A stretch of DNA of 64,000 nt. It comes from Heterodontus francisci. Lineage: Eukaryota. Made by a program: the position numbers and the translations under genes. Below the pieces are notes generated by a model. That model did no database searches, was not told where the DNA came from, and worked only from the letters and a program-made list of their open reading frames with translations. The DNA is taken from the NCBI RefSeq assembly GCF_036365525.1, contig NC_090382.1, positions 33,401,298 through 33,465,297 on the forward strand, in the 5' to 3' direction. Below, one piece after another: positions 370 to 55,931 of this stretch (positions are counted from its first letter, which is position 1; every line of letters begins with the position of its first letter).

Positions 370-2482
370 TGCATGTGTACTCCAAGGGTGACAGAGGGGC
401 AATAGTCAGAGGCACTTGCTCCCAAGTGGCTGGCAAGGGAAAGGTCTTCGCCCTGGTAGACAGTCTACTGTGCATGGCTCAACTATTGCCAGATATCCGA
501 GCGGCAGTGTCAGCGCAGACTGAGGCACTCTAGGGAGGTGGTCACTGATTTTTGCGCCATGCTTTAGGACGAGCTGAGACCTGTGGGGTCTCTGAAAATC
601 AACATGGCTCCCAACCTCTACACCTCTGGCTCTTTTCAGGGATCCACTGTAGACCTTTGACTTTTGTGGGATATCACAGGCTGCGGCACATCAGTGCATC
701 AAGGAGGTGACCAATGCCATGTTCAAGAGGGCTGACGAATATGTGCAGTGCCGGACCAATGGAGACAGTCAGGCGGAGAGGTCCATTGGTTTTGGAGCCA
801 TCGCTGGATTCCCCCAAGGGTGGGATCAACTGCATGCACGTGACCATCAATGCACCGAGGACCAGCCAGTGGCCTTCATCAACAGGAAGGGCTTTCGTTT
901 CATCAATGGTGTTATGAAAGTGCTTCCATTTTTTGTTAAATTTTTTTTTGAGGACACACATTTAAATTGTGGAAATGGATTTTGGAAGGCTGAAGATTTC
1001 ATAGATGCTGGACTTTGTTTTGTTGTTGGAAGTTCACTGAAAGGACACGAGATGTTGTGTTTGAAAACAACCTATACTGATATCACATGCCTTAAGATAA
1101 ATAAAGAACAGAAACCTTGGTGACTTGGGGGACATGTTTGCAGAGAAGTGACATGTCAAGATTTATAAGGGTCAAGAATTGGTTTGGCTTCTGAGATATT
1201 GTTTTGGTTCAGTTGGGGTGTGGACAGGTGTGAAAAGCAATTGGTTTTGTACTTGCTGAAAAGAAACCCCCATTTCATCTGTCCTGCACCTCACTAAGAG
1301 ACCAGAGAAATCCAGTGTGTCAGCTTCTCTTTCTCTACCTCTTTGGAAAAACCCTGCAAATCCAGAGTATGATAACTGAAACCCCTGATGCCACATTTCT
1401 CCTGGAAAGTCTACCAGACTATTTCTCAACATCTCCAGAATGAACTGCTTCTGAAAAGATACCAGAGACCTGTCTCCGCAAACCCGGACACCAGACCAAA
1501 AGGAACAACTGACATCCTTCCATACCTTCTCTTTTTTTCTTCAAGAATTAGCAAGTATTTGGCCAAAGTATTCCTATTTTTGTCTTTTTTTTGTAAAAGA
1601 GCTCCGCAGAGAGTATTTTTTTCCAGTGTGTCTGTGTTTGTGTGTGGAGTATTTAAAAAGGGAACTTTCATATTTCAATCTGTGCGTTTATGCTTTGTGT
1701 CATTACTGGATAAGTCTTGTTTTATAATAAACTGATAATTTTGTTGTTTATTAAAGAAATCTGGTTGTTGTATTTTATTCTGGGATAAAGAGTAGAGTTT
1801 ATGATTGGCCATATCGGCAACTGGGTAAACATTTACAATATATGTTGTGACCTGTGGACAACTGGAACTGGAAATGCCAGTGTGCTCCTTCCCCCTCGTT
1901 CATAGCACTGGTCTGTGACCATTGAATGCGAATCCTTCGGGTATGTGCACATTTCCGGGGAATCAGCCATGAAGCCTACATACTTTGGCAGTCCCAAGTG
2001 CCAGAGCTGTTCCAGTCCCCCGTGTGCCTTCAGGGATGGATTCTTGGGGACAATGGATACCCGCTGAAGACATGGCTACTCACGCCTGTGAGGAACCCTT
2101 GCATTGCAGCAGAGGAGAGGAGAGTTACAATACCTGCCACGGCTCCACCTGAGCAAGCATCGAGCAGGCCATTGGTCTCCTAAAGATGCGATTTGGGTGC
2201 CTGGAATAATCTGGTGGAGTCCTTCAGTACACCCCAGCGAGGGTTTCCTGCATCGTTGAGATCTGATGTGCTCTGCACAGCCTAGCAGCGTAGAGTGGGG
2301 AGGCCTTGAATAATGAGGACATCTTCGATTGCCACTCCTCATCCAATGAGGAGGATGTGAAGGAGGCTGCTGAGCTGGCAGTACAGGATGAGGAACCCCT
2401 TGTACCAGAGGCAAGTGGAAATAAGAGATTCATAAGGGAGGCGCGGGACAATCTCATACTAACCATTTCCTGTTGCCCTGAT
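370..2482 (+). pseudogene. Harbinger (HARBI1-like DDE) transposase pseudogene, split by a solo LTR at 910-1907
   Basis: Frameshifted or stopped motifs ISERQCQRRLRHSREVV, SGSFQ, GISQAAAHQCIKEVT, AGFP..G.INCMHV, FINRKGF, LVCDH, WILGDNGYPLKTWLLTP, IEQAIGLLKMRF, CALH; AATAAA at 2502. Confidence 0.9.
910..1907 (+). mobile_element. Solo LTR (998 bp) inserted in the Harbinger transposase
   Basis: Termini TGTTATGAA...TTCATAGCA (TG..CA with short inverted repeat); internal AATAAA near 1726; non-coding; transposase frame resumes right after it (CTG GTC TGT GAC). Confidence 0.75.
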
Positions 2483-11490: not shown

Positions 11491-11787
11491 TACAGTTCTA
11501 GCATAACCTCCCTGCTCTTATATTCTGTGCCTCAGCTAATAAAGGAAAGTATCCTATATGCTTTTTAACCACCTGATCTACCTGTCCTGCTACCTTCAGA
11601 GATCTGTGGACATGCACCCCAAGATCCGTCTGTCCCTGTACACTCCTCAGTATCCTACCATTTATTGTGTATTCGCTTGCTTTGTTTGTCCTCCCCAAAT
11701 GCATTACCTCACACTTCTTTGGATTGAATTCCTTTTGCCATTTTTCTGCCCATCTGACCAGTCCATTGCTATCTTCGTGCAGTCTAT

Positions 11788-12575
11788 GGCCGGAGTTTTA
11801 CGATGGATGCAAGAGAGCCGGACTTCGACGTGAAAGTCGGTGGCGAACCCGCTTCCGCCTAGCCTGGGGATCCGTCCCGTATTTTACGGATCCCCAGGCT
11901 TTAATTGTCCTGAGTTGGGACTTCCACCCACTTGAGAGAGGAGGTCCCGCCTCAGTGAGCTGCCGGCCAATCAGCGGGCCGACAGCTCTTAGTCCCGCAG
12001 CACCACCGGGAGCGGTGGCCAGTGCTGGGACTGCAGCCAAGCCAACGCCATGGATCAAGGAGGGAAGGTAAGTAGGGCCACTCCTCATCAGTGGGATCGG
12101 TCCTTCCCTGGTGAGGCTGGAGTTGTCCTTTAGCGGGAGGGGGTGTCTTGGGTCCCGGGGGTGGGTTGGAAGGCGGGGGCGGCCCTCAATTGGGCACTCT
12201 GTGCCCGACTGCCAGGCCCTCCCCCCCGGGGCGTGGAAAGGCTGGCGGCTATCGCTGGGCAGCCTTTCACGTCCCCAGCACACCCGCTTGCCACGGGTAA
12301 CATACCCATGGGGGCGGGCCAGGACCCTTAAGTGGCCGTTAAGTGGCCACTTAAGGGTCTTGATTGGCCTTGGGCGGGCGGGCCGTTTCCCACCCCCCCC
12401 CCCCCCCCCCCGCCCCCCCCCCCGCTGCCTGATCTCCGTAAACTTGTTCGGAGGTGGAATCAGGGCGGGTAGGCCTCCCGGAGCCTGCCGCTCAACTTTA
12501 CACCGCTATCCCCCACCCCCCGCCCCACCTCCCACCTCACTATCCGACCCGCTGGGGCAGCGTAAAATTCCGGCC
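11788..12575. mobile_element. Non-autonomous PIF/Harbinger-type MITE (788 bp)
   Basis: TIRs GGCCGGAGTTTTACG / CGTAAAATTCCGGCC; 3-bp TSD TAT/GAT; CpG-rich; host CR1 is contiguous when it is removed. Confidence 0.88.
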
Positions 12576-12982
12576 GATAGCTTTCTTCCTTACTATCAAT
12601 CACACAACCAATTTTTGTATCATCTACAAACTTCATAATCATGCCCTCGACATTTAAATCTAAATTATTGATATACATCATGAACAGCAAGGCACCCAAT
12701 ACTGAGCCCTGTGGGGCTCCACCAGAAGCAGGCTTCCAGACACAAAAGCACCCGTCAATCATTATCCTTTGCTTCTGGCCATTGAGTCAATTTTGGATCC
12801 AACTTGCCACTTGCTCTTGGATCCCATGGGCTGTTACGTTTCTGACTAGCCTGCCATGTGGGGCTTTGTCAAAAGCCTTGTTAAAATCCATGTAGATGAC
12901 AGCTACCCTCATCGACCCTGTTTGATTGCATTTTTTGAGGAGGTAACAAGTTAGTCAGACATGATCTTTGCTTAACAAATCT

Positions 12983-17703: not shown

Positions 17704-18052
17704 GGTACCAGAATGTCTTTTTCAAAAGTAAAAACGTATCTTTTTGGCAGGGTTTTGCACCAACTGCTTTTATTGCAGTAGAATTTCTTAGTAGTTGAAA
17801 GTAATTTTTTCCTCTGTAGTGACAAGAATAACTGAAGCTCAGTGACTTAAAGCAGTCCTTTCAGTAGTAATACCACAGCGGCCACGGGTTCAAGTAAACG
17901 GAGCTTCATAAACCCTGCAAGGTTTACATTGCGCACAGCCTAACACTTTTAACTCTGATTTTGCTTTAGCACCAGCCGACAGCTCCAGTGTGAGGGTAAA
18001 ATAAGAGATAAATAGTTTACTTTTTGTTCCATTATATTTTCCCCACCCCTTA

Positions 18053-19828
18053 GCCATTGATTCTCTAGCCAGCGGAAAAGCCCTTGGGAAGGACAGCATT
18101 ACCCCTGAAATAATCAAGAGTGCCAAGCCTGCTATACTCTCAGCACTACATGAACTGCTATGCCTGTGCTGGGACGAGGGAGCAGTACCCCAGGACATGC
18201 GCGATGCCAATATCATCACCCTCTATAAAAACAAAGGTGACCGCGGTGACTGCAACAACTACCGTGGAATCTCCCTGCTCAGCATAGTGGGGAAAGTCTT
18301 TGCTCGAGTCGCTCTGAACAGGCTCCAGAAGCTGGCCGAGCACGTCTACCCTGAGGCACAGTGTGGCTTTCGTGCAGAGAGATTGACCATTGACATGCTG
18401 TTCTCCCTTCGTCAGATACAGGAGAAATGCCGTGAACAACAGATGCCCCTCTACATTGCTTTCATTGATCTCACCAAAGCCTTTGACCTCGTCAGCAGAC
18501 GTGGTCTCTTCAGACTACTAGAAAAGATCGGATGTCCACCAAAGCTACTAAGTATCATCACCTCATTCCATGACAATATGAAAGGCACAATTCAACATGG
18601 TGGCTCCTCATCAGAGCCCTTTCCTATCCTGAGTGGTGTGAAACAGGGCTGTGTTCTCGCACCCACACTTTTTGGGATTTTCTTCTACCTGCTGCTTTCA
18701 CATGCGTTCAAATCCTCTGAAGAAGGAATTTTCCTCCACACAAGATCAGGGGGCAGGTTGTTCAACCTTGCCCGTCTAAGAGCGAAGTCCAAAGTACGGA
18801 AAGTCCTCATCAGAGAACTCCTCTTTGCTGACGATGCTGCTTTAACATCTCACACTGAAGAGTGCCTGCAGAGTCTCATCGACAGGTTTGCGGCTGCCTG
18901 CAATGAATTTGGCCTAACCATCAGCCTCAAGAAAACGAACATCATGGGGAAGGACGTCAGAAATGCTCCATCCATCAATATTGGCGACCACGCTCTGGAA
19001 GTGGTTCAAGAGTTCACCTACCTAGGCTCAACTATCACCAGTAACCTGTCTCTAGATGCAGAAATCAACAAGCGCATGGGTAAGGCTTCCACTGCTATGT
19101 CCAGACTGGCCAAGAGAGTGTGGGAAAATGGCGCACTGACACGGAACACAAAAGTCCGAGTGTATCAGGCCTGTGTCCTCAGTACCTTGCTCTACGGCAG
19201 CGAGGCCTGGACAACGTATGCCAGCCAAGAGCGACGTCTCAATTCATTCCATCTTCGCTGCCTTCGGAGAATACTTGGCATCAGGTGGCAGGACTATATC
19301 TCCAACACAGAAGTCCTTGAAGCGGCCAACACCCCCAGCTTATACACACTACTGAGTCAGAGGCGCTTGAGATGGCTTGGCCATGTGAGCCGCATGGAAG
19401 ATGGCAGGATCCCCAAAGACACATTGTACAGCGAGCTCGCCACTGGTATCAGACCCACCGGCCGTCCATGTCTCCGCTATAAAGACGTCTGCAAACGCGA
19501 CATGAAATCGTGTGACATTGATCACAAGTCGTGGGAGTCAGTTGCCAGCATTCGCCAGAGCTGGCGAGCAGCCATAAAGACAGGGCTAAATTGTGGCGAG
19601 TCGAAGAGACTTAGTAGCTGGCAGGAAAAAAGACAGAGGCGCAAGGGGAGAGCCAACTGTGCAACAGCCCCGACAAACAAATTTCTCTGCAGCACCTGTG
19701 GAAGAGCCTGTCACTCCAGAATCGGCCTTTATAGCCACTCCAGGCGCTGCTTCACAAACCACTGACCACCTCCAGGCGCGTATCCATTGTCTCTCGAGAT
19801 AAGGAGGCCCAAAAGAAAAAGAAAGAAG
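18053..19828 (+). mobile_element. 5'-truncated young RTE LINE with an uninterrupted RT + zinc-finger frame (ORF 18197-19765, open from ~18053)
   Basis: [64 protein letters not shown]; GAA-rich tail. Confidence 0.95.
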
Positions 19829-19856
19829 TATATGAAGGCATGAATGCTCTATTTGT

Positions 19857-20249
19857 CTTCTTCTGCTTTGGCCTCCTTGTCTCGAGAAACAATGGGTAAG
19901 CGTCTAGCGATGGTCAGTGGTTTGTGAAGCAGCGCCTGGAGTGGCTATAAAGGCCAATTCTAGAGTGACTGCATCTTCCACAGGTGCTGCCGATAAAATT
20001 GGTTGTCGGAGCTGTTACACAGTTGGCTCGCTCCTTGCACTTCTGTCTTTTTTCCTGCCAACTGCTAAGTCTCTTTGACTCGCCACACTTTAGCCCCGCC
20101 TTTATGGCTGCCCGCCAGTTCTGACGATCGCTGGCAACTGACTCCCACGACTTGTGGTCAATGTCACAGGACTTCATGTCACGTCGTTAAAGCGGAGACA
20201 TGGGCGGTCAGTGGGTCTGATACCAGTGACGAGCTTGCTGTACAATGCG
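19857..20249 (-). mobile_element. Short 3' fragment of the same RTE family, inverted
   Basis: ORF 19914-20177 matches the RTE C-terminus; flanking direct repeat TCTATTTGT (19848-19856 and 20250-20258). Confidence 0.92.
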
Positions 20250-20359
20250 TCTATTTGTATTATTTGTATTATGAGTAATAACGGTGCTTTCTTTATTCTG
20301 ATAACCACAGCAACTTCGCCACCACCTGTGATGGACAGTTGGGACTGCAAGAGCCAGGG

Positions 20360-20693
20360 CCAATCAGGTGAGCGGATGTTAGTGGGTGCGAGGGCGAGCA
20401 GCGTTGTGATTGGCTGGAAGAGCAGGCAGCACTGCGATTGGCTGCATGGGCTAACAGCGTTGTAATTGGCTGCTACCGCAAGGGGTGTTGCGATTGGCTA
20501 TGAAGGCGAGCGACATTGCGATTGGCTGCGGGGGCGAACGGCGTTGCGATTGGCTGCAAGGCGAGCGGCATTGTGAGTGGCTGCGCGGACGAACGGCGTT
20601 ATGATTGGCTGCGAGGCCGAGCGGCGTTGTGATTGGCTGCGAGGGCGAGGGGCGTTGTGATTGGCTGCGAGAGCGAGCGGGCGCGGGGGAAAG
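20360..20693 (+). promoter_or_regulatory. CDC23 proximal promoter: CpG-rich 28-bp tandem array of inverted CCAAT (NF-Y) boxes
   Basis: ATTGG at 20409, 20437, 20465, 20493, 20521, 20549, 20604, 20632 and 20660; AGTGG variants at 20381 and 20576; forward CCAAT at 20360. Unit consensus GATTGGCTGCGAGGGCGAGCGGCGTTGT, lying immediately 5' of the ATG. Confidence 0.85.
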
Positions 20694-20702
20694 ATGGCGG
20701 CG
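20690..20702 (+). promoter_or_regulatory. TISU/YY1-like start-codon element (AAAGATGGCGGC)
   Basis: One mismatch from the TISU consensus SAASATGGCGGC; contains the YY1 core AAGATGGCGGC. Confidence 0.55.
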
Positions 20703-20797
20703 CTGTGCGAGTTTCCCGAGCTGAAGGAGGTAAAACGGGGGCTGATGGTGGTGAGCAGCCTGTGCCGGGAGCGTGGCCTCCTGCAGAGTGCCAAGTG
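20694..20797 (+). CDS. CDC23: CDC23 exon 1 ([35 protein letters not shown])
   Basis: aagATGGCGG start context; RERGLL..KW motif; donor TG|gtgagt, phase 2. Confidence 0.92.
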
Positions 20798-23700
20798 GTG
20801 AGTGAGAGAGCCGGTTGGTGGGCAGGGGACCAGCAGCAGGTCAGGCTGGGGAGCAACTCCCCTCAGTTTTGATCCAGTGCACTGGCAGAGGCGGAGCCAG
20901 GCTGGGCCCAAATTCTGCATTTACATTACAGCTGGTTTGCAACGAAAATGCAAATGTATGTTTAGTCTTCTTTACCCTTTAAATATAATTTTCAATTCTA
21001 ACATCTCTATGAAGCTGTCATGCTCTTTACTTAGTTATTCCCTGTTCACCTGCAGCTGACTCCCAGTAATGATGTGAGGTTTAAAGCACATCTGTACAAC
21101 AGCCCTCAGCTCAGTCTGGATCTGTCAGAGCAGCTTGTACAGTCCTCTGCCTGGTGCCGGTGTATAGGAATGGCTACAGATTAGTTTGCCATGTACGGGT
21201 GTTCTAAAGTATAACTTGTTAAATGTAGAATACAAAGTTAGGAGTTGTGTATCTGTGTAGCCATTTGTTTTTATTTACAGGTTACTTTTTCCAACTCCGA
21301 GTGATTAACTTAAGTAATTAATTTATAAACCTTTGATTATTACTTGTATAAAGTTGCAGTGATAGTCTTGATCATGTCTTCAGCGCACAGATCTTTGTGC
21401 GTCAATAATAAGTCTCGTGGGTGATCTTTGTTTAATTTGATATTTGCTGTCGTCAAAAATTTTTTTTTTGCAAATTTAGCAGAATCCTTTTTGTTGAAAA
21501 AGTAATAGCATAAGAAATATTTCATAGCAGAAGAGCCCTGATTAGCTGCTCTCCTATCACCCCGCGTTTATGGTTTTTCAGGGATTCTGGTTGGGTCACA
21601 TTGAATCTTTTTATTTCCTGTCACTTTGGATTGGGAATCAGGTCAGGTTTTCTTTCTGCACTGACTTACAACCTGATTATCTGCCAATTTCAAATATCTA
21701 CCAGGGACTTGTTCATTATGGAGTAAAATCAAGGCTTTAACTGTTCATAGCCTATGTGGCACACTCTGATAGAGTGTTTATTCTCCTGCTATCCAAAGAG
21801 AACATGAGAGGGCTGGTGTGAATTCCAGTGAGCTCTTCATGATTATATTCTTGGCTATCCCTCGCAGGCGAGGATGATTGTCTTCCGAATCCGAAGATGG
21901 CTGATTCGAGATCTACAGACTTTATGGCACGTAGGGCATTTGTTGTCATTGGGATGTCTGGTCGTATATTATTAGTTCCTGTCATGGCTTGTTCTTTTTG
22001 CTGCTCTCGCTTTTCCTCTTTTTATCGTCGTTGGGCCTCAAAATGCTGGGATGCCTCCCACAGACCCTGCCACCATCTGGATCGGTCCAGGGCGATGGTC
22101 TCCCAGGAGGTGATGTCAATGTTGCATTTCTTCATGTTGGATTTCAGCACATTCTTGAAGCGTTTCTTCTGTCCTCCTCTGGTGCATCTGCCCTGACTGA
22201 GTTGGGTGAAGAAGATCTGTTTTGGGAGCCTGGTATCTGACATCCGACCTATATGACCAACCCAACAAAGCTGATGGCAGATAATCATAGCCTTGATCCT
22301 TGTGGCCCCTGCTTGTGAGAGGACACTGATGTTGGTGAGCCTGTTCTCCAGCTTGACATGTAGGATATTCCGCAAGCGGCATTGATGTGACTCCAGTGCT
22401 TTGAGGTGCCTCCTATACATTGCACATGTTTCGGCCCCGTACTGTAAGGTAGGGAACACAACCACATGGCTTGGTTTCAGTTTTGATGTCGTGACCTTCA
22501 AACACTCATTTCCTCAGGTGGCCACAGGCTGTATCAGCAGATTTCAGGCGATGCTGGATTTCTTCGTCAGTGTCAGCTTTCTGTGAAAGATAACTTCCAA
22601 GATACTGGAAGTTTTCCACATTTTCCAGACACTCACCATGAATCCTAATCAGTGGGGCTGGGGCCTGTGTATTTGGAGCTTGCTGATGGAGGACTTTAGT
22701 CTTCTGAATGTTGAGTGCAAGTCCCATCTGCTCGTATGCCTCAGTAAAAACGTCAATGATTCTCTGAAGATCTGTTTCTGACACAGCACTTACTGCAGCC
22801 TCATCAGCATATTGGTGCTCAATGACTGAAGTCGGGGTGGTCTTAGTTTTTGATTGGAGTTGTCTGAGATTAAATAGTTTACCGTCCATTCGATAATCTG
22901 CACTCCAACAGGGAGCTTGTCTCTAGTCAGATGGAGCATGGCTGCTAGGAAGATCAAACCTTGTTTAACTTCTGTCTTAACCTTAAAGGGGTCTGTAATG
23001 GGTCCGTTGCTAAAGACCACCGCTCATATATCCTCATGAAGTAGGCGAAGGAAGGTGATGAATTTTGGACGACATCCATACTTCAACAGAATCTTCCAGA
23101 GTGGCTCACGATTTACAAAGTCGAAGGCCTTTATCAAGTCAAAAAACGCTATGCAGAGAGGTTGATGTTGTTTGCGACATTTTTCTTGTAGTTGGCAAGC
23201 TCTGAAAATCGTGTCAACAGTGTCTCTTGATGGCCTAAACGCACATTGAGATTTGGGGAGTAGCTCTTCAGCAAGTGTAATGAATCAGTTCAGAAGGGTT
23301 CTTGTAATGAACTTCCCTGCAATGGAAAGTAGGGAGATGCCTCTGTAATTTCCACAGTTGGGTTTGTCCCCTTTCTTGAAGATTGTTACAATCATGGAGT
23401 CCTTGAAATCATTCGGGACTTCCTCTTCATTCCCGATCTGTAGGATGAGGGCGTGGAGCTGTAATGTTAGTTCCTCTCCTCTGTGCGTAAAGACTTCAGG
23501 GATTCCGTCACCACCTGCCGCTTTGTTGTTGTTCATTTGTGTGATGGCTTTCATCACCTCCATCGGCATTAGTGGAGTTCCGAGCTCGTCTCTAACTGGA
23601 TGTTGTGGGATGGAATTGAAAACACCCTCATCAACAATGGGTTCTTGATTGAAAAGGTCTTCAAAATGCTCCCTCTAACAGGTGTTGCCAGCTTCCCTTT

Positions 23701-26700
23701 CCTTGATCAGATCTCCCCCATCCTTAGGCCTCAAAGGTGCTGGTCCTTGAGTACTTGGGCCATAAATAGACTTTGTGGCAGTGAAGAAGCCACAGATATT
23801 TATGTAAGCAAGATGTTGAAAACGCATGATAATGACTGGGCAGGGCAGCGTTACCTGTTGTTGTGCCTTTAGGGTCATACATTGTAGGGAGTTAGGGTCA
23901 ATAGTGGGACCAGATCTTGAATCTGGCAGTGGAGAAATATCTTTCTAAAATCATAACGTGAACCAAGTTCCTACAACCCTCAACAGTGACAACATGCATA
24001 TCTCAAAATGAAGCGTTCCCTGGTCCTTTAGGTTGTGTAAACCATTATTGTGATGGGCTTGCCTGTGTCTGGAGGAGGTCTGAATTTCACACGTCCTTAT
24101 GTAGTTGAGGTTGACTGTTTTCTTTTTGCACAGGGCTTCAGAGTTGGCCTTCTCTCTGGATCCACTTCCTAAAGACGAGCTGCCACCCGCCCCTGCATTA
24201 ACAGAGGTACGACAGTTTTTTTTAACAGGTACACAAATTATACTTATTTTAACAAGCAATTCTAAAGGATGCCACAATTTTAAAAGGTTTGAAACCCATA
24301 GAACTGAAGCTTCTTTCTGTCTTAATAGATTGACGTTAGAAAATGTATTTAAAAGGAACATTACACTGATCCTGTTTGCCATTGCTGCTATTAGAAAGGG
24401 GAGACACAGCTTTAATGGAGCAGGGAAATGCCTAAGTACAATAATACATTCGGGTATAAGTTAAACTTGTCTATCGTGGTGTTTGCTTTAGTTCGGGGCA
24501 GGTGGGGAATGAATGAGGAGAAGCAGTGAAGTCTCTTTTCATTCTATTCTTTCCATAAACAAAATCCAGGTAATTGCGTGACAGAGAAAATCAACTGCAG
24601 TGTGGTTCAATATCCAAGATAAGGGCTGTGTGTACATTTCATGAGAGATTTCTTTTTGAGTTACAGATTTATTTATTTTTAGTAAAAACTTGTTTATATT
24701 TAGGAAGACCTGGTGGATTTGGATGCCTACACTTTGGCCAAGTCGTACTTTGACTTGAAGGAGTATGACCGTGCAGCATATTTTCTCAAGGGCTGTCAGA
24801 GTCAGAAGGCTTACTTCCTGTATATGTATTCCAGATATCTGGTAAGGGAACACTCATTAATAATAGGATCACTGGTAAACCTGCAATGGCCCATCAAATG
24901 CATTTCAGGGTGACTAGGTGGTGCAGTGGGCTAGCCTCTGCCCTTTCACCTCTGGGGCTTATTTTAAATCCAGCCTAGACTGATGGGATGAAATTCATAG
25001 TCTGGCATCTTTGCTGGACAGCGTTATACTATATAACCATTTTCTAAGATCTGTTGGAAACTTCCATTATCTGTTGTAATGGAGGGGAATCCCCACTGTG
25101 GATCATGGAAATTGGCAATAATCAAGAGTCCCCAAATTATTCTTATACAGCAATATGCTAGGCATGGAAGTATTATGTTATCAGAAGTTCTGGCAGTGAA
25201 ATGATACCTTGTGCAATGCATGAAAAACACAAATAATTGAACATAATATAAGATTGTGTGCATTATTGTCCTTTCCATTTCACTAACCATCCTGTGCCAT
25301 GGAATATCTCAAACAGAGAACAGCAACTTGCTCATAGACCATTATTGTGCCATGTAGGGTAAGCTTTTTTTAAGGAGGTGTGCAAATAGTCCAAAGTGAA
25401 TTCCTACTCAATTTCCACCCTTAAGGAATGCATTGGGTGTCCCATAGTGATATGGGTGAGATTGGGACCTCTGAGATTACATTTTTGTTTGATCAGTTGC
25501 ACACATTTTTTAAATTTCCTTACCCCAGTCTCAAATTGTAGTCTTCTCATATTATACCAACATGACAACAAGACTATACATCGTATCTATTGGGTTGTAA
25601 TACACTTTGAGATGATCTGAGGATGTGAAAGGCATTTGATAAATGCAAGTTTGTTCTTCATACAAAATAAAAACAGAAAGTGCTGGAAATCCTCCGCAGG
25701 TCAGGCAGCATCTGTGGAGAGAGAAGCAGAGTTAACATTTCAGGTCTGCAGCACAGTCTGATCTGCTGTGTATTTGCATAAGAAGTAGGAGTAGGCAATT
25801 CAGCCCCTCGAGCCTGCTCCGCCATTCAGTACGATCATGGCTGATCTTATCTTGGCCTCAACTCCACTTTCCTGCCGGTTCTCCATAACCCTTCATCCTA
25901 TTTCTTATTAAAAATCTGTCTATCTCCTCCTTAAATTTACTCAATGTCCTGGCATCCACCGCACTCTGGGGTAGTGAATTCCACAGATTCACGACCCATT
26001 GAGAGAAGTAATTTCTCTTCATCTCTGTTTTAAATCTGCTACCCCTTATCCTAAAACTATGACCTCTCATTCTAGATGAATTCCACAAGAGGAAACATCC
26101 TCTCTACGTCTACTTTGTCAATCTCCTTAATCATCTTATATACCTCAATTAGATCTCCTCTCATTCTTCTAAAGTCCAGGGAGTAAAGGCCGAAACTCTC
26201 AATCTCTCTTCATAAGACAAGCTCCCCATCTCTGGAATCAATCTAGTGAATCCCCTCTGAACTGCCTCCAATGCAACTACATCCTTTCCCAAGTAAGGGG
26301 ACCAAAACTCTACGCAATACTCCAGGTGCGGTCTCGCTAATGCCAGCACTTCCTGTTTTTATTTCAGATTTCCAGCATCTGTAGTATTTTGCTTTTGTTC
26401 TTCTTATACATTGTTACCCTGCCAAGATGGAAAGCAGATGGAATCAGTCCTTGCAAGTGTCCTGGGAAGACTCGTCCCCTCATTTTTTTCTGCCTTTATG
26501 GCATGGGTCTTTTCCTGCATGTCAACTTTGTATGGTAGAGATTAGTGACTTTGGAGCATAAATTTGCATTCTATCACAGTGGTGGTTATAGAGGCCTGGA
26601 CTAATAAGCCAGAAAATGTGAATTCAAATCTGACCATGGAAGTTGGGGAATTTGAATTCAGTTTTTTTTAAAATCTAAAACTAAAAACCTAGTTACAGTA

Positions 26701-50700: not shown

Positions 50701-53443
50701 GTTTGCAAGAGCCTATTTTTTTTTTTTAACTTCCATGAGAAATGAGCAATACGACATGGGGAAGAAGCACATGAAATGGTTTGCTATTGTCTTTATGTGT
50801 GCTTTCAAGGAAACACACATCCTCTTCCGGCATCACCACCAAAAATTCACTGTTGTTGACCGTGGCTTGTAACCCTGAGCGTGGGCACCCTCGCCTGGGC
50901 AACTCCCAAAAGGGCAGGGATAACCACCCCTGTATAGTTCCTTCCTGTCCCAGACCTGGTACCACTGTCCTATGAAATTGAACCCCTTTCCCACACTCTT
51001 TCAGCAGTGTTCACAAATAATCCAGATTATAACTCTTGAGATCCTCGTGCCTGGTACTTTATAAGCTGAACCTCATGCCTACTCTTCCCTATGTTATTGG
51101 TCCCAACATGGATCATTCCCCTCCAATATTCTTTCAAGCTGGTTTAAGATGTCCCTCACAAGTAAAGTTGGTCCCTGCCTGCTTGGGTTGGGAGAACACA
51201 GTGTCAACCACCCCTCAAACAGATCCAACCTCTTGAATGAAAGTTACCCATATAGGAATGTATGCCAGTAAAATATATTCCAGCAGGAGGAAAAGAGATA
51301 AAATCACTTTCATTTTTAAAATTGTATTTTGGTTACAGAAATGCAACCTGCAGTTCTGAAGGGGTGAGGGGAAAGAATATCCTAGTTCGAATGTTTTTAG
51401 GAGCTGTAGCTGTTGAAGTAAATACCTTATTTACTTATAACCTGAATTATAGGTAGAGTAAGTACATTTTGCATGGTGGTTCCATCTTCAAAGGGCTGCA
51501 GAGAAAGTTATGACAAATTCATACAAATGAAAAATGAGCAGCTTTCTCAGTCACTCCCTGAACTAATAAATCTTTGTTGTTCAAATCTTTAGGAGCTTCT
51601 GGAGCATCATGAAATGAGCACTGCATTTCGAGCCTTGGCACAGTATTATTTCAAATGTAAACGGTGGGATGAGGCATCAGTCTGTGCACAGAAGTGTTGT
51701 GATTACAATGATGTAAGTTTTAACCATATCTCTATGGTAGCCATCTCAGGGAAGTTGCTGTCAAGTACAGGTGGGCATTAGGGGAGAACAAGTTTTTGTT
51801 TTCAGATCCAGTACAGTGTTTCAGTGCTGTATCTCTAATCTAATCCTACAACTGACTACAGCAGTGTAATCCAGCAGATTTACTAGAATACAAGTCTTGA
51901 TTCAGCTAATGTTCAGGAATATGTTTCCCTAAAAGTATCTCATTTCAATAACTTATTTAGAAAGAGCCTGTGCACTAATTAGTAATATCCATCAGCTTTT
52001 AACAGGTTTAAATTTTAGAAAGGTAAACCAAAATTTAGCCATTCTAATTAAAGTTAGATTTTTTAAAGTCTTTTAACCTTGAAATCCAAATCATAAATGC
52101 TTCAATAAGAAAGTTCAGCAATACTACCAGCTGATAATGCAGAATGGCATCAACCAGCCAGGTATTGTTGGTGAATTGCTCGATTACGCTATTGGGAATC
52201 TGGCCTCTATGGTTGCCAAAACATCAAGCTGATACGAACTGTATATGGACAGGAGCAGGCTGAATAAACTTGTCAGTCCTTCACTTACATGCTGACAGGT
52301 GCAAGTATGCTCACCTTGTCCCTTTCTGCTCATTTAATCTCTGTGAACATGTGGCACTATTTTTTTTTTAAAAAGGGAATTCATTATGTTGAGGCAAATA
52401 TTTATCCCTCAACCAAAACCCAAATCAGGAGGCCATTCATCCCATCATATCTGCACCAGCTCTCCGAATGAGCATTTCATCTCGTGCCACTCTCCTGCCT
52501 TCTCCCTTTTTCAGATAAGTCTAATTCCCTTTTGAATGCTTCAACTAAACCTGCCTCCACCACTCTCAGGCAGTGCATTATAGACCTTATTCACTGTGTG
52601 AAAAGTTTTCCTAATATCACTTCTTTTACCAATTACTCTAAATCTGTGCCCTCTTGTTCCCACTTGTGAAAGGATTGAGAACGATAGGACACAGATTTAA
52701 AGTAATTGGCAAAAGCAAAAAAAAAATGTGACTAGGAAAATTTTCACACAGCGAGTGGTTAAGGTCTGGACAGAGTAGAGAGGGAGAAACTGTTCCTGTC
52801 TATCTACTCTGCCCAGACCGCTCATGATTTTGAATACCTCTATCAAATCACCTCTCAACAACCTTTTCTCCAAGGATAATAGTCCCAAATTCTCCAATCT
52901 GTCTTCATACCTGAATTTCCTCATTCCTGGAACCATTCTCGTGAATCTTTTCTGTACTCTCTCTAATACTTTCACATCCTTCCTAAAGCACAGCGCCCAG
53001 AACTGGATGCAGTACTCCAGCTGAGACCGAACTAGTGTCTTATACAAGTGCAACATAACCGCCTTGCTCTTGTGCTGTGTTTCCTACGTTAAGTACTGTA
53101 TTGGCTGTAATGTGGTTTGGAATGTCCTGAGGCAGCAAAATATATTTACAAATTTTGTAAGGTTGTTCTCAAACACTTCAGACTTGTTAATCCAAGTTGA
53201 CTTTTAATGAAACGCTTATTTGCTTTGATTTTGGTTGGCCAGTAGATTTTTGGATTAAATATTGATTTGTTCCAGACCAGAGAAGAAGGAAAAGCTCTGC
53301 TCAGACAGATATCACAGCTTCGTAACCAGGGTGACGTGCCACCAACGCCCATATCTGCAGATGTAACTCGAACATTTGTCCCTGGAGTCAACACCCCCTC
53401 TGCAAAACTGCCACCACTAAACCTATCTTCCATCACACCATGA
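20694..53443 (+). CDS. CDC23: Cell division cycle protein 23 / APC8 (anaphase-promoting complex TPR subunit), 16 coding exons, 577 aa: join(20694..20797,24134..24206,24704..24841,27002..27044,28180..28285,31830..31962,36335..36512,38487..38584,43004..43085,44221..44374,45440..45559,45665..45740,46335..46396,47424..47502,51593..51712,53276..53443)
   Basis: Manually spliced exons give one open frame of 1734 nt with GT-AG introns and matching phases. The translation matches vertebrate CDC23 as recalled ([78 protein letters not shown]-terminal PLNLSSITP*). Confidence 0.97.
21880..23880 (-). mobile_element. Older, degenerate RTE-clade LINE of a different family in CDC23 intron 1
   Basis: [66 protein letters not shown] across several frames. 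Confidence 0.9.
24134..24206 (+). CDS. CDC23: CDC23 exon 2 ([24 protein letters not shown])
   Basis: Acceptor tttttgcacag, donor gtacga; 73 nt. Confidence 0.93.
24704..24841 (+). CDS. CDC23: CDC23 exon 3 ([17 protein letters not shown]...YMYSRYL)
   Basis: Acceptor atatttag, donor gtaagg; 138 nt. Confidence 0.96.
25663..26397. mobile_element. Penelope-derived inverted-repeat remnant interrupted by a minus-strand CR1 3' fragment (~25778-26342)
   Basis: AAAACAGAAAGTGCTGGAAAT...GGCAGCATCTGTGGAGAGAGAA and its reverse complement arm flank the CR1 tail. Confidence 0.6.
26578..26865 (+). mobile_element. Degraded tRNA-derived SINE (same family as 7860 and 32990)
   Basis: GGACTAATAAGCCAGA..TTCAAATC head; AATGTGGTTGACTCTAAACTGCCCT body. 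Confidence 0.65.
27002..27044 (+). CDS. CDC23: CDC23 exon 4 ([14 protein letters not shown])
   Basis: Acceptor attctag, donor gtaagt; 43 nt. Confidence 0.95.
28180..28285 (+). CDS. CDC23: CDC23 exon 5 ([11 protein letters not shown]...DGFGLYL)
   Basis: Acceptor ttggcag, donor gtacgt; 106 nt. Confidence 0.95.
28733..28930. mobile_element. Penelope-derived palindromic remnant carrying a minimal hammerhead-like core, inserted in an old CR1 fragment
   Basis: ~50-bp inverted arms at 28741-28790 and 28807-28856; CTGATGA-stem-GAAA core at 28798-28822. Confidence 0.6.
29510..31360 (-). mobile_element. CR1 LINE fragment (RT and 3' end) with internal deletions
   Basis: [42 protein letters not shown]. 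Confidence 0.92.
31830..31962 (+). CDS. CDC23: CDC23 exon 6 ([18 protein letters not shown]...ITDKEM)
   Basis: Acceptor atattag, donor gtaagg; 133 nt. Confidence 0.96.
32185..32455 (+). mobile_element. Degraded Deu-domain SINE (SacSINE1-like)
   Basis: TGCTGAGGGAGTGCTACATTG...GTCCTGGCCAATGTTCTTCCCTCA...ACAGTGAATGCACTTCAAAG resembles the DeuSINE body and tail as recalled; further pieces at ~25555-25655 and 52395/53075-53145. Confidence 0.6.
32750..36010 (-). mobile_element. CR1 LINE retaining ORF1 (zinc finger + SGNH esterase) and ORF2 remnants; internal deletion with a SINE 3' piece at ~32990-33176
   Basis: ORF1 CRSCSM..C..., [19 protein letters not shown]; ORF2 [27 protein letters not shown]; CR1 3' tail at 32750. 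Confidence 0.88.
36335..36512 (+). CDS. CDC23: CDC23 exon 7 ([25 protein letters not shown]...AYHNVR)
   Basis: Homology places the start at CTC AAG after an unusual ttcGAG acceptor; donor gtcagt; 178 nt. Confidence 0.9.
38487..38584 (+). CDS. CDC23: CDC23 exon 8 ([33 protein letters not shown])
   Basis: Acceptor ctctttag, donor gtaagg; 98 nt. Confidence 0.96.
40424..42875 (+). mobile_element. CR1 LINE 3' fragment with a nested inverted CR1 copy
   Basis: RT remnants on +; host frame LVRPH|[12 protein letters not shown] is split at 41142/42321. Confidence 0.88.
41142..42320 (-). mobile_element. CR1 LINE 3' fragment nested in the opposite orientation
   Basis: [33 protein letters not shown]; possible TSD ACAT. 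Confidence 0.88.
43004..43085 (+). CDS. CDC23: CDC23 exon 9 ([27 protein letters not shown])
   Basis: Acceptor tctattag, donor gtgagc; 82 nt. Confidence 0.96.
44221..44374 (+). CDS. CDC23: CDC23 exon 10 ([21 protein letters not shown]...AAIQAYR)
   Basis: Acceptor ttatcaag, donor gtacac; 154 nt. Confidence 0.97.
44845..45362 (-). mobile_element. Degraded CR1 3' fragment
   Basis: [17 protein letters not shown] and CR1 3' UTR. Confidence 0.8.
45440..45559 (+). CDS. CDC23: CDC23 exon 11 ([40 protein letters not shown])
   Basis: Acceptor ccctgcag, donor gtaagc; 120 nt. Confidence 0.97.
45665..45740 (+). CDS. CDC23: CDC23 exon 12 ([25 protein letters not shown])
   Basis: Acceptor ccccacag, donor gtactt; 76 nt; the preceding intron is only 105 nt. 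Confidence 0.96.
46335..46396 (+). CDS. CDC23: CDC23 exon 13 ([21 protein letters not shown])
   Basis: Acceptor attggcag, donor gtaagt; 62 nt. Confidence 0.96.
47424..47502 (+). CDS. CDC23: CDC23 exon 14 ([26 protein letters not shown])
   Basis: Acceptor attgcag, donor gtaaga; 79 nt. Confidence 0.95.
47770..48540 (-). mobile_element. Degraded CR1 fragment
   Basis: [25 protein letters not shown]...KFANDTK. Confidence 0.8.
49055..50368 (+). mobile_element. CR1 LINE 3' fragment (RT)
   Basis: ORF 49267-50046: [43 protein letters not shown]; 3' tail CCTACTCCTGCTCCTATTTCTTATG. Confidence 0.92.
51593..51712 (+). CDS. CDC23: CDC23 exon 15 ([40 protein letters not shown])
   Basis: Acceptor tctttag, donor gtaagt; 120 nt. 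Confidence 0.95.
52425..53072 (-). mobile_element. CR1 3' fragment containing fold-back rearrangements
   Basis: [18 protein letters not shown]...[13 protein letters not shown] on -, with an inverted segment at 52677-52796. Confidence 0.8.
53276..53443 (+). CDS. CDC23: CDC23 exon 16, terminal coding part ([19 protein letters not shown]...PLNLSSITP*)
   Basis: Acceptor gttccag; TGA stop at 53441-53443. Confidence 0.95.
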   Translation, partial: TREEGKALLRQISQLRNQGDVPPTPISADVTRTFVPGVNTPSAKLPPLNLSSITP

Positions 53444-55610: not shown

Positions 55611-55931
55611 TTAATAGTTTACGTGATATTGTACACTCGAGAGATGCAATGGCTTCTCCAGTCTTGCTCGGGATCGCAGAATATAATTGGAGGGAGTGTT
55701 GTTGCTGCACTGCTGAGCAAGCCTCATTGGGGTCAGGAGACCAGTTAGAAATGGCTTTTTCCCCGGGGGTGGCTGATTTTCAATATTGCCAGCACAGCGA
55801 CGCTTATTGCAGCCTGGACCCGCCTGAAGCTGGCGGACTGTGTGATACTGCTCTGCGATGCATGCATTTTTTTTCTTCAGGTCCAATTTTACTGCAATCA
55901 TCAGTTTCTGCAGCTCTGCCAAGGTGTGATC
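55611..55931 (-). CDS. KIF20A: KIF20A terminal coding exon
   Basis: Acceptor ttctaacag then GAT CAC ACC TTG; ACIAEQYHTV and PPGKKPFL motifs; TAA stop at 55613-55611. Confidence 0.93.
   Translation of the reverse strand, partial: DHTLAELQKLMIAVKLDLKKKNACIAEQYHTVRQLQAGPGCNKRRCAGNIENQPPPGKKPFLTGLLTPMRLAQQCSNNTPSNYILRSRARLEKPLHLSSVQYHVNY

Follow-up and report, generated by a model that had tools for sequence, protein, structure and literature searches.

The DNA directly upstream of the CDC23 start codon in Heterodontus francisci is for the most part a tandem array of 11 degenerate units (20372–20678), each of which carries a CCAAT box, intact or broken, in reverse orientation. Positions are those of the window, the whole 64,000-nucleotide stretch of DNA that was analysed. 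The array is fairly likely to be a TATA-less CpG-island proximal promoter in which an ancestral NF-Y site was amplified, with ordinary NF-Y function and with several boxes under purifying selection.

In the pathway that we propose, a GC-rich 28-bp segment containing the NF-Y site of CDC23 would have been duplicated in tandem long ago, and the gene-proximal end (units 9–11) would have been extended or homogenised more recently. Several of the reverse-oriented boxes would be bound by NF-Y (NF-YA/B/C), which would keep the region nucleosome-depleted and recruit the pre-initiation complex, as elsewhere at TATA-less CpG-island promoters. Initiation would be restricted to just 5′ of a TISU/YY1 start element, so that the 5′ UTR would be very short, and the boxes, distal ones included, would be held by purifying selection as the spacers decay.

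Structure of the array and its position at CDC23

Tandem Repeats Finder (TRF), a check suggested with the original prediction, gave a row at 20383–20680 with period 28, 10.7 copies, 73% matches, 2% indels and a score of 244, the highest among the 21 TRF rows of the window. The array shows the head-to-tail organisation of a minisatellite (unit class 10–60 bp). Ten units are 28 bp long and one is 27 bp, the alignment being otherwise gap-free, so that the near-exact 28-nucleotide period holds for all units but one, and the multiplication of an NF-Y-type site by tandem duplication is borne out by both TRF and the unit alignment.

Perfect ATTGG was present on the + strand at all nine expected positions (20409, 20437, 20465, 20493, 20521, 20549, 20604, 20632 and 20660), with AGTGG at 20381 and 20576. 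On the − strand these are nine perfect CCAAT boxes (20407–20666), one in each of units 2–7 and 9–11, and two in-register broken boxes, CCACT, in units 1 and 8. The ten to eleven NF-Y boxes originally counted thus come down to nine perfect ones, eight of which fit RRCCAATSR. Consecutive perfect boxes are 28 bp apart in seven of eight intervals and 55 bp apart in the remaining one, and their positions run from −34 to −285 relative to the ATG. Across 5000 dinucleotide shuffles of the 307 bp, ATTGG occurred 0.82 times on average and never more than 5 times, against the nine copies observed. The two broken boxes carry the identical transversion, CCAAT to CCACT, which could reflect recurrent mutation or conversion between far-apart units.

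Matches to RRCCAATSR number 21 in the window, and nine of these are the eight array boxes plus one at 20358; for the longer pattern YRRCCAATSRS, seven of nine window matches are inside the array. An extended NF-Y consensus is given as TRRCCAATSRN (PMC10366219, Table 2). The match at 20358–20366 (+ strand, CCAAT at 20360) is a lone NF-Y-type box, off the repeat register and opposite in orientation to the array boxes. Two opposed CAGGTG E-boxes at 20323–20370 bracket this lone box together with a TALE-like decamer at 20329 that has one mismatch; the whole cluster falls in the 120-bp unique segment 5′ of the array. The array itself is CpG-rich and has a GC skew of 0.39 (G-rich on the + strand). 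Its region, with a CpG observed/expected ratio of 1.0–1.13 against 0.31 for the whole window, is the window's strongest CpG island.

The gene downstream is CDC23 (APC8), as predicted. Sixteen colinear coding blocks were found on the + strand at 20694–53443, with the stop codon at 53441–53443 (tblastn: P0004, P0005 and P0009; Pfam ANAPC8 on one exon). Coding exon 1 (20694–20797, ATG at 20694) has a PDB match to CDC23 (E 6e-5) and shares 89% identity with residues 1–35 of Stegostoma and Narcine CDC23; it ends at a phase-2 GT donor at 20798, and exon 2 begins at 24134. Three shark and ray proteins share 98% identity with one internal exon, and the named proteins from other vertebrates share at most 90%, which places the source among the elasmobranchs. 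The gene is apparently a complete chondrichthyan CDC23. The array ends 15 nt short of the orthologous ATG, in agreement with the promoter position assigned to it. The upstream limit of unique DNA is set by an antisense LINE fragment, leaving 441 bp before the ATG (20253–20693), of which the array makes up 307 bp.

Patterns for the TATA box (TATAWAW), CHR (five hexamers), E2F and GC-box were scanned against 20253–20810. All four gave zero matches in this interval, so the claimed absence of TATA box and CHR held. A TISU/YY1-type element at 20691–20701 (+ strand), with the core AAGATGGC at 20691–20698, encloses the start codon, and AAGATGGCG occurs once in the window, at the CDC23 start. The match of this site to the 12-mer TISU pattern is inexact.

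The core definition of the TISU motif is that of PMC2518114, in which the motif sits at +5 to +30 from the transcription start site (TSS), the median UTR is 12 nt if the motif ATG is the start codon, and 36% of TISU-motif genes start translation elsewhere. From this location and short UTR we infer a CDC23 TSS at about 20660–20690, a few to about 30 nt 5′ of the TISU element. Four ATGs within the array would make upstream ORFs given more 5′ initiation, which favours a TSS 3′ of 20601. With a TISU-type short UTR, units 9–10 would fall near the usual CCAAT position of −60/−100 (PMC11802806). The last box would be within about 30 bp of the TSS, nearer than usual, which counts against the promoter reading.

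Conservation of the core and age of the array

Nine core columns of the unit alignment deviate from consensus at 6 of 99 sites, compared with 42 of 208 in the other columns (Fisher P 0.0007), a contrast that weakens to P 0.028 after scan correction for the post hoc choice of core window. For ATTGG, defined a priori, the counts are 2/55 and 46/252 (column permutation P 0.007, or 0.03 without CpG columns). The most conserved columns are those of the NF-Y consensus, and within the motif only one column is polymorphic (C/T), at the site where either A or G is accepted by NF-Y. Mean pairwise distances among units 2–11 are 0.07 for cores and 0.35 for spacers. The near-invariant core was thus confirmed; the remaining 16 or so nucleotides were said to drift freely, but the 19 non-core columns keep about 80% consensus and so cannot be described in this way.

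CpG decay is a real confounder of this contrast, because the five CpGs of each unit are nearly all outside the core and CpG-type transitions account for 21 of 51 substitutions. They also lend weight to an alternative in which the array is a mostly neutral minisatellite grown from an ordinary CCAAT promoter with one to three boxes. Functional importance would then be confined to boxes at the usual distance (units 9–10), and the other cores would seem conserved through lack of CpG, shared history and chance. We consider this unlikely. In its favour, two cores are broken and the youngest units are proximal. With transversions only, core and spacer do not differ significantly (3/88 against 14/219, P 0.23). 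In neutral simulations matched on total divergence only, neutrality is not rejected when CpG mutability is raised 10–15-fold (P 0.10–0.60; six of ten settings); the same matching gives borderline values with a 5-fold excess (P 0.03–0.10) and rejects neutrality with none (P 0.002–0.016).

Against neutrality, the contrast persists when CpG columns are dropped (core 4/88, spacer 19/109; Fisher P 0.004, column permutation P 0.006). It is seen in distal units 2–7, 145–285 bp from the ATG, where 2/54 core and 31/113 spacer sites have changed; with CpG columns removed the figures are 1/48 and 11/59 (P 0.006). The 10-fold CpG settings predict 35–42 CpG-column changes, whereas 25 were observed. Three LINE copies in the window indicate an excess of only about 2–3-fold (0.090 against 0.040 transitions per site), a value that majority-rule polarising may underestimate. 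When the simulations, which combined star or sequential duplication histories with CpG mutation, were conditioned on the number of non-CpG changes, neutrality was rejected in all nine settings (P 0.007–0.043). The core–spacer contrast is therefore probably more than CpG decay. The contrast behind the proposed selection on the boxes survives CpG removal and the conditioned simulations, but not the transversion test or the strong-CpG nulls; we take this as moderate support for purifying selection that reaches beyond the proximal boxes.

A further point for the neutral alternative comes from a degenerate tandem array at 127–364, in which an almost invariant 13-nt core, TGAAGRTGRCAGC, occurs seven times between variable G-rich spacers. 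Its start-to-start distances are 31–47 bp, and it was found at no other site in the window. No gene start was identified beside it, so a fixed core with variable spacers does not by itself imply promoter function. The core resembles the YY1 motif. Frameshifted peptide fragments at 650–920 (+ strand), which gave no Pfam match, in our judgement resemble a Harbinger/HARBI1-type transposase, and the 127–364 array may be part of this Harbinger-like element.

Spacer divergence declines towards the ATG (Spearman −0.93, units 2–11). The predicted rise in homogeneity towards the gene is thus present, but in the spacers; stronger NF-Y selection near the ATG was rejected as its cause, since the gradient sits in spacer columns. 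Later duplication or conversion at the gene-proximal end would fit. Derived bases common to units 3, 6 and 8, and likewise to units 2 and 4 (20428–20594), hint at multi-unit duplications, with weak tree support. The neighbouring LINE copies differ by 8–16%, less than the array spacers, and the array is probably older than the adjacent LINE insertions. Every unit differs from every other, and exact repeats extend to 21 bp at most, which makes copy-number tuning at the present day doubtful. The suggestion of a copy-number-tunable promoter was accordingly not upheld: with 73% matches and a spacer p-distance of 0.35, the array is old and impure, unlike a live VNTR.

Possible NF-Y binding, spacing and comparable promoters

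The NF-Y-type identity of the cores agrees with both the consensus fit of eight boxes and reports of CDC23 as an NF-Y target in mammals. In mouse, Cdc23 is named as an NFYA-bound gene whose expression and accessibility both fall in Nfya-null oocytes (PMC13060261). Human CDC23 is listed in a PMC4889920 supplement entitled 'Target genes per GO class'; with the file matched to its table by title, the text of that paper suggests that the genes listed are NF-YB-bound and NF-YA-responsive in HeLa cells. Elsewhere NF-Y, bound at a median of 94 bp upstream, is reported to maintain nucleosome depletion and accurate TSS choice, and promoters whose TSS shifts upon NF-Y loss have more CCAAT motifs (bioRxiv 10.1101/369389). 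Full occupancy of the boxes is not to be assumed, because at the four-box Mrps12/Sars2 promoter every box was footprinted in vivo, yet EMSA pointed to binding that may be mutually exclusive (PMC1802594).

NF-Y sites are given a minimum spacing of 24 bp, a bend of 80 degrees and a promoter spacing peak of 31 bp (PMC4982600). A 28-bp period exceeds the minimum and is off the peak, and would therefore permit side-by-side binding, out of phase. The CCAAT spacing peaks of PMC4889920, at 24–28 and 35–37, look to us to be offset by 5 from those of PMC4982600, which leaves 28 bp as a possible preferred spacing. Successive NF-Y trimers had been predicted to rotate around the helix; the arithmetic is right, each unit turning by 231–249 degrees, and special phasing gained little support. 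In a rigid toy model with ten kinks, arrays of 31–32 bp curl (end-to-end distance 13–33 nm). A 28-bp period gives an open path of 67–70 nm out of 95 nm, and periods of 24–30 and 33 bp are equally open. Indels in the array (1 per 51 substitutions) are as scarce as in the local LINE copies (1 per 63; P 0.81). Selection for the 28-bp period is therefore not supported: the period is permissive, with equally open alternatives and an indel rate equal to the local one.

A bolder form of the NF-Y reading, which we regard as quite unlikely, has most of the nine to ten boxes occupied together. With a 24-bp footprint and a 28-bp period, NF-Y histone-fold trimers would form a near-continuous, open, out-of-phase filament of about 300 bp, replacing about two nucleosomes, shielding the small CpG-island promoter from neighbouring LINE chromatin and fixing the TSS; such an arrangement would be conserved across elasmobranchs and perhaps recur at other shark housekeeping promoters. 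If NF-Y uses many of the boxes, this would be a natural host-gene promoter made almost entirely of one amplified activator site. It would then offer a test of how many NF-Y trimers fit side by side out of phase, and of whether output or TSS fidelity rises with the number of boxes, and would show how tandem duplication makes homotypic site clusters. Comparison of the paralogous units likewise amounts to phylogenetic footprinting of the NF-Y motif within a single sequence.

G2/M multi-CCAAT promoters carry CDE/CHR elements. The analogy with such promoters, part of the original prediction, failed on two points: neither CHR (with or without CDE) nor E2F was found in 20253–20810, and the boxes are 28 bp apart in seven of eight intervals rather than at the in-phase distance of about 31–32 bp of the CHR-type class (CCNB1/B2, CDC25C), the in-phase peak being 31 bp in PMC4982600. 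The array would instead resemble a multi-CCAAT NF-Y promoter set outside the CHR-type G2/M class. As in shark CDC23, the boxes of cyclin B2, CDC25C, thymidine kinase and Mrps12/Sars2 are described as sharing one orientation in TATA-less, GC-rich proximal promoters of cell-cycle genes (PMC1802594, PMC4982600, PMC4889920), but multi-CCAAT NF-Y promoters usually have two to four boxes, no recognisable repeat unit and a spacing peak at 31 bp (PMC4982600). The human gamma-globin promoter, also a host promoter, has two NF-Y-bound CCAAT boxes (−115 and −88) 27 bp apart (PMC10366219, PMC3468502); it contains a TATA box and is tissue-specific, whereas the shark promoter has nine intact boxes, on the opposite strand.

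Multiplication of a transcription factor site by a tandem repeat in a proximal promoter is also described for the 33-bp VNTR of TRIB3 (PMC7425993). That repeat carries a C/EBP-ATF site in 1–5 copies, is human-specific and polymorphic, and has a demonstrated dosage effect (PMC7425993). The shark array is degenerate, with 11 copies in one haplotype, and TRIB3-type copy-number polymorphism is less likely here because of its low purity. The BORIS minisatellite was rejected as a precedent, its CCAAT box lying apart from the repeat (PMC4973313). Since CDC23 as a target, multi-CCAAT promoters and repeat-amplified sites are all known, the array would add to current views without overturning them. What sets it apart from the precedents is that a host housekeeping promoter is composed largely of about eleven degenerate NF-Y units whose distal cores carry a selection signal. 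Among the matches listed in literature searches on the CDC23 promoter, CCAAT tandem repeats, NF-Y VNTRs and shark promoter repeats, which covered few subscription journals, the array is undescribed.

Other explanations and neighbouring repeats

The array might have been exapted from a transposable element, for instance from an LTR with a CCAAT-repeat U3 enhancer or from the subterminal repeats of a DNA transposon. A known model is ERV-9/LTR12, whose U3 enhancer (14 CCAAT- and GATA-containing repeats), like the related R66 tandem repeat, resembles the shark array in having many CCAAT subunits in tandem, and whose repeats are NF-Y-bound and act on a host gene (PMC3730095, PMC5416847, PMC12065363). 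Long NF-Y-bound CCAAT arrays in mammals are, in the same reports, typically LTR-derived, and the region surrounding the shark array is rich in transposable elements. However, ERV-9/LTR12 is retroviral, with thousands of dispersed, mostly distal copies and spacing peaks of 24 and 41 bp (PMC4982600), while the shark array is single-copy in the window (best off-array blastn-short match, E 1.3), adjoins a host ATG and has a 28-bp period. It also lacks the U3-R-U5 anatomy with a TATA box 3′ of the array: between array and ATG there are 15 nt, containing neither TATAWAW nor an R/U5-like segment. The flanking LINE fragment has a target-site duplication of its own and ends 120 bp 5′ of unit 1. An origin of this kind is accordingly very unlikely.

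This fragment (19856–20252, − strand) is the 5′-truncated 3′ end of a LINE, flanked by an apparent target-site duplication of 8–9 bp (19848–19855 and 20250–20257). By blastn self-search and repeat comparison it belongs to the same family as a LINE copy further 5′ of the promoter (18005–19830, + strand), which has a reverse-transcriptase ORF (Pfam RVT_1, E 1e-32) and which we assume to be RTE-like. The two LINE 3′ ends face each other across a gap of about 30 bp and form an imperfect inverted repeat (19417–20252, 84% identity), ending 120 bp 5′ of the array; if transcribed, it could fold as a hairpin or dsRNA.

It is less probable still that the core serves another, overlapping factor. Half-sites for TALE PBX/PREP (a TGATTG-type decamer), NFI (TTGGC) and C/EBP are present in the repeat, the unit 8 variant is closer to the TALE decamer, and there is a one-mismatch decamer at 20329. 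But a scan of 20253–20810 found neither a complete decamer nor an NFI palindrome nor a C/EBP site, and eight boxes fit the full NF-Y consensus. The site at 20329 is 21 bp from the CCAAT at 20360, and cooperative DECA-CCAAT action is reported to need about 11 bp (bioRxiv 10.64898/2026.02.16.706105).

An RNA-level action of the array from within a long 5′ UTR is scarcely credible: it could appeal to the TISU-motif genes that start translation outside the motif, but the motif ATG is here the orthologous start, the class with the 12-nt median UTR (PMC2518114), the four upstream ATGs would yield upstream ORFs, the unique DNA 5′ of the array amounts to no more than about 120 bp, and Rfam gave no match at E≤1 in 19800–21300. 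A 46-aa in-frame extension joined to exon 1 had no protein candidate at 25–81 aa, and of 21 longer candidates the two that passed were full-length shark or ray CDC23 proteins matching exon 1 only. A 140-aa antisense ORF over the array was rejected as coding, its one weak match (P0090, E 8e-5) lying outside the repeat part and being judged due to chance; antisense ORFs over the array are taken as non-coding.

Elsewhere in the window, an exon-like peptide at 55614–55901 (− strand), tail-to-tail with CDC23, had no match in Pfam or Atlas; it resembles the C-terminus of KIF20A, and this gene order would agree with that of mammals. Another patch rich in GC and CpG, at 11500–12750, contains convergent NF-Y-type boxes at 11965 (+ strand) and 12361 (− strand) and a 35-nt C run, and is probably a repeat element.
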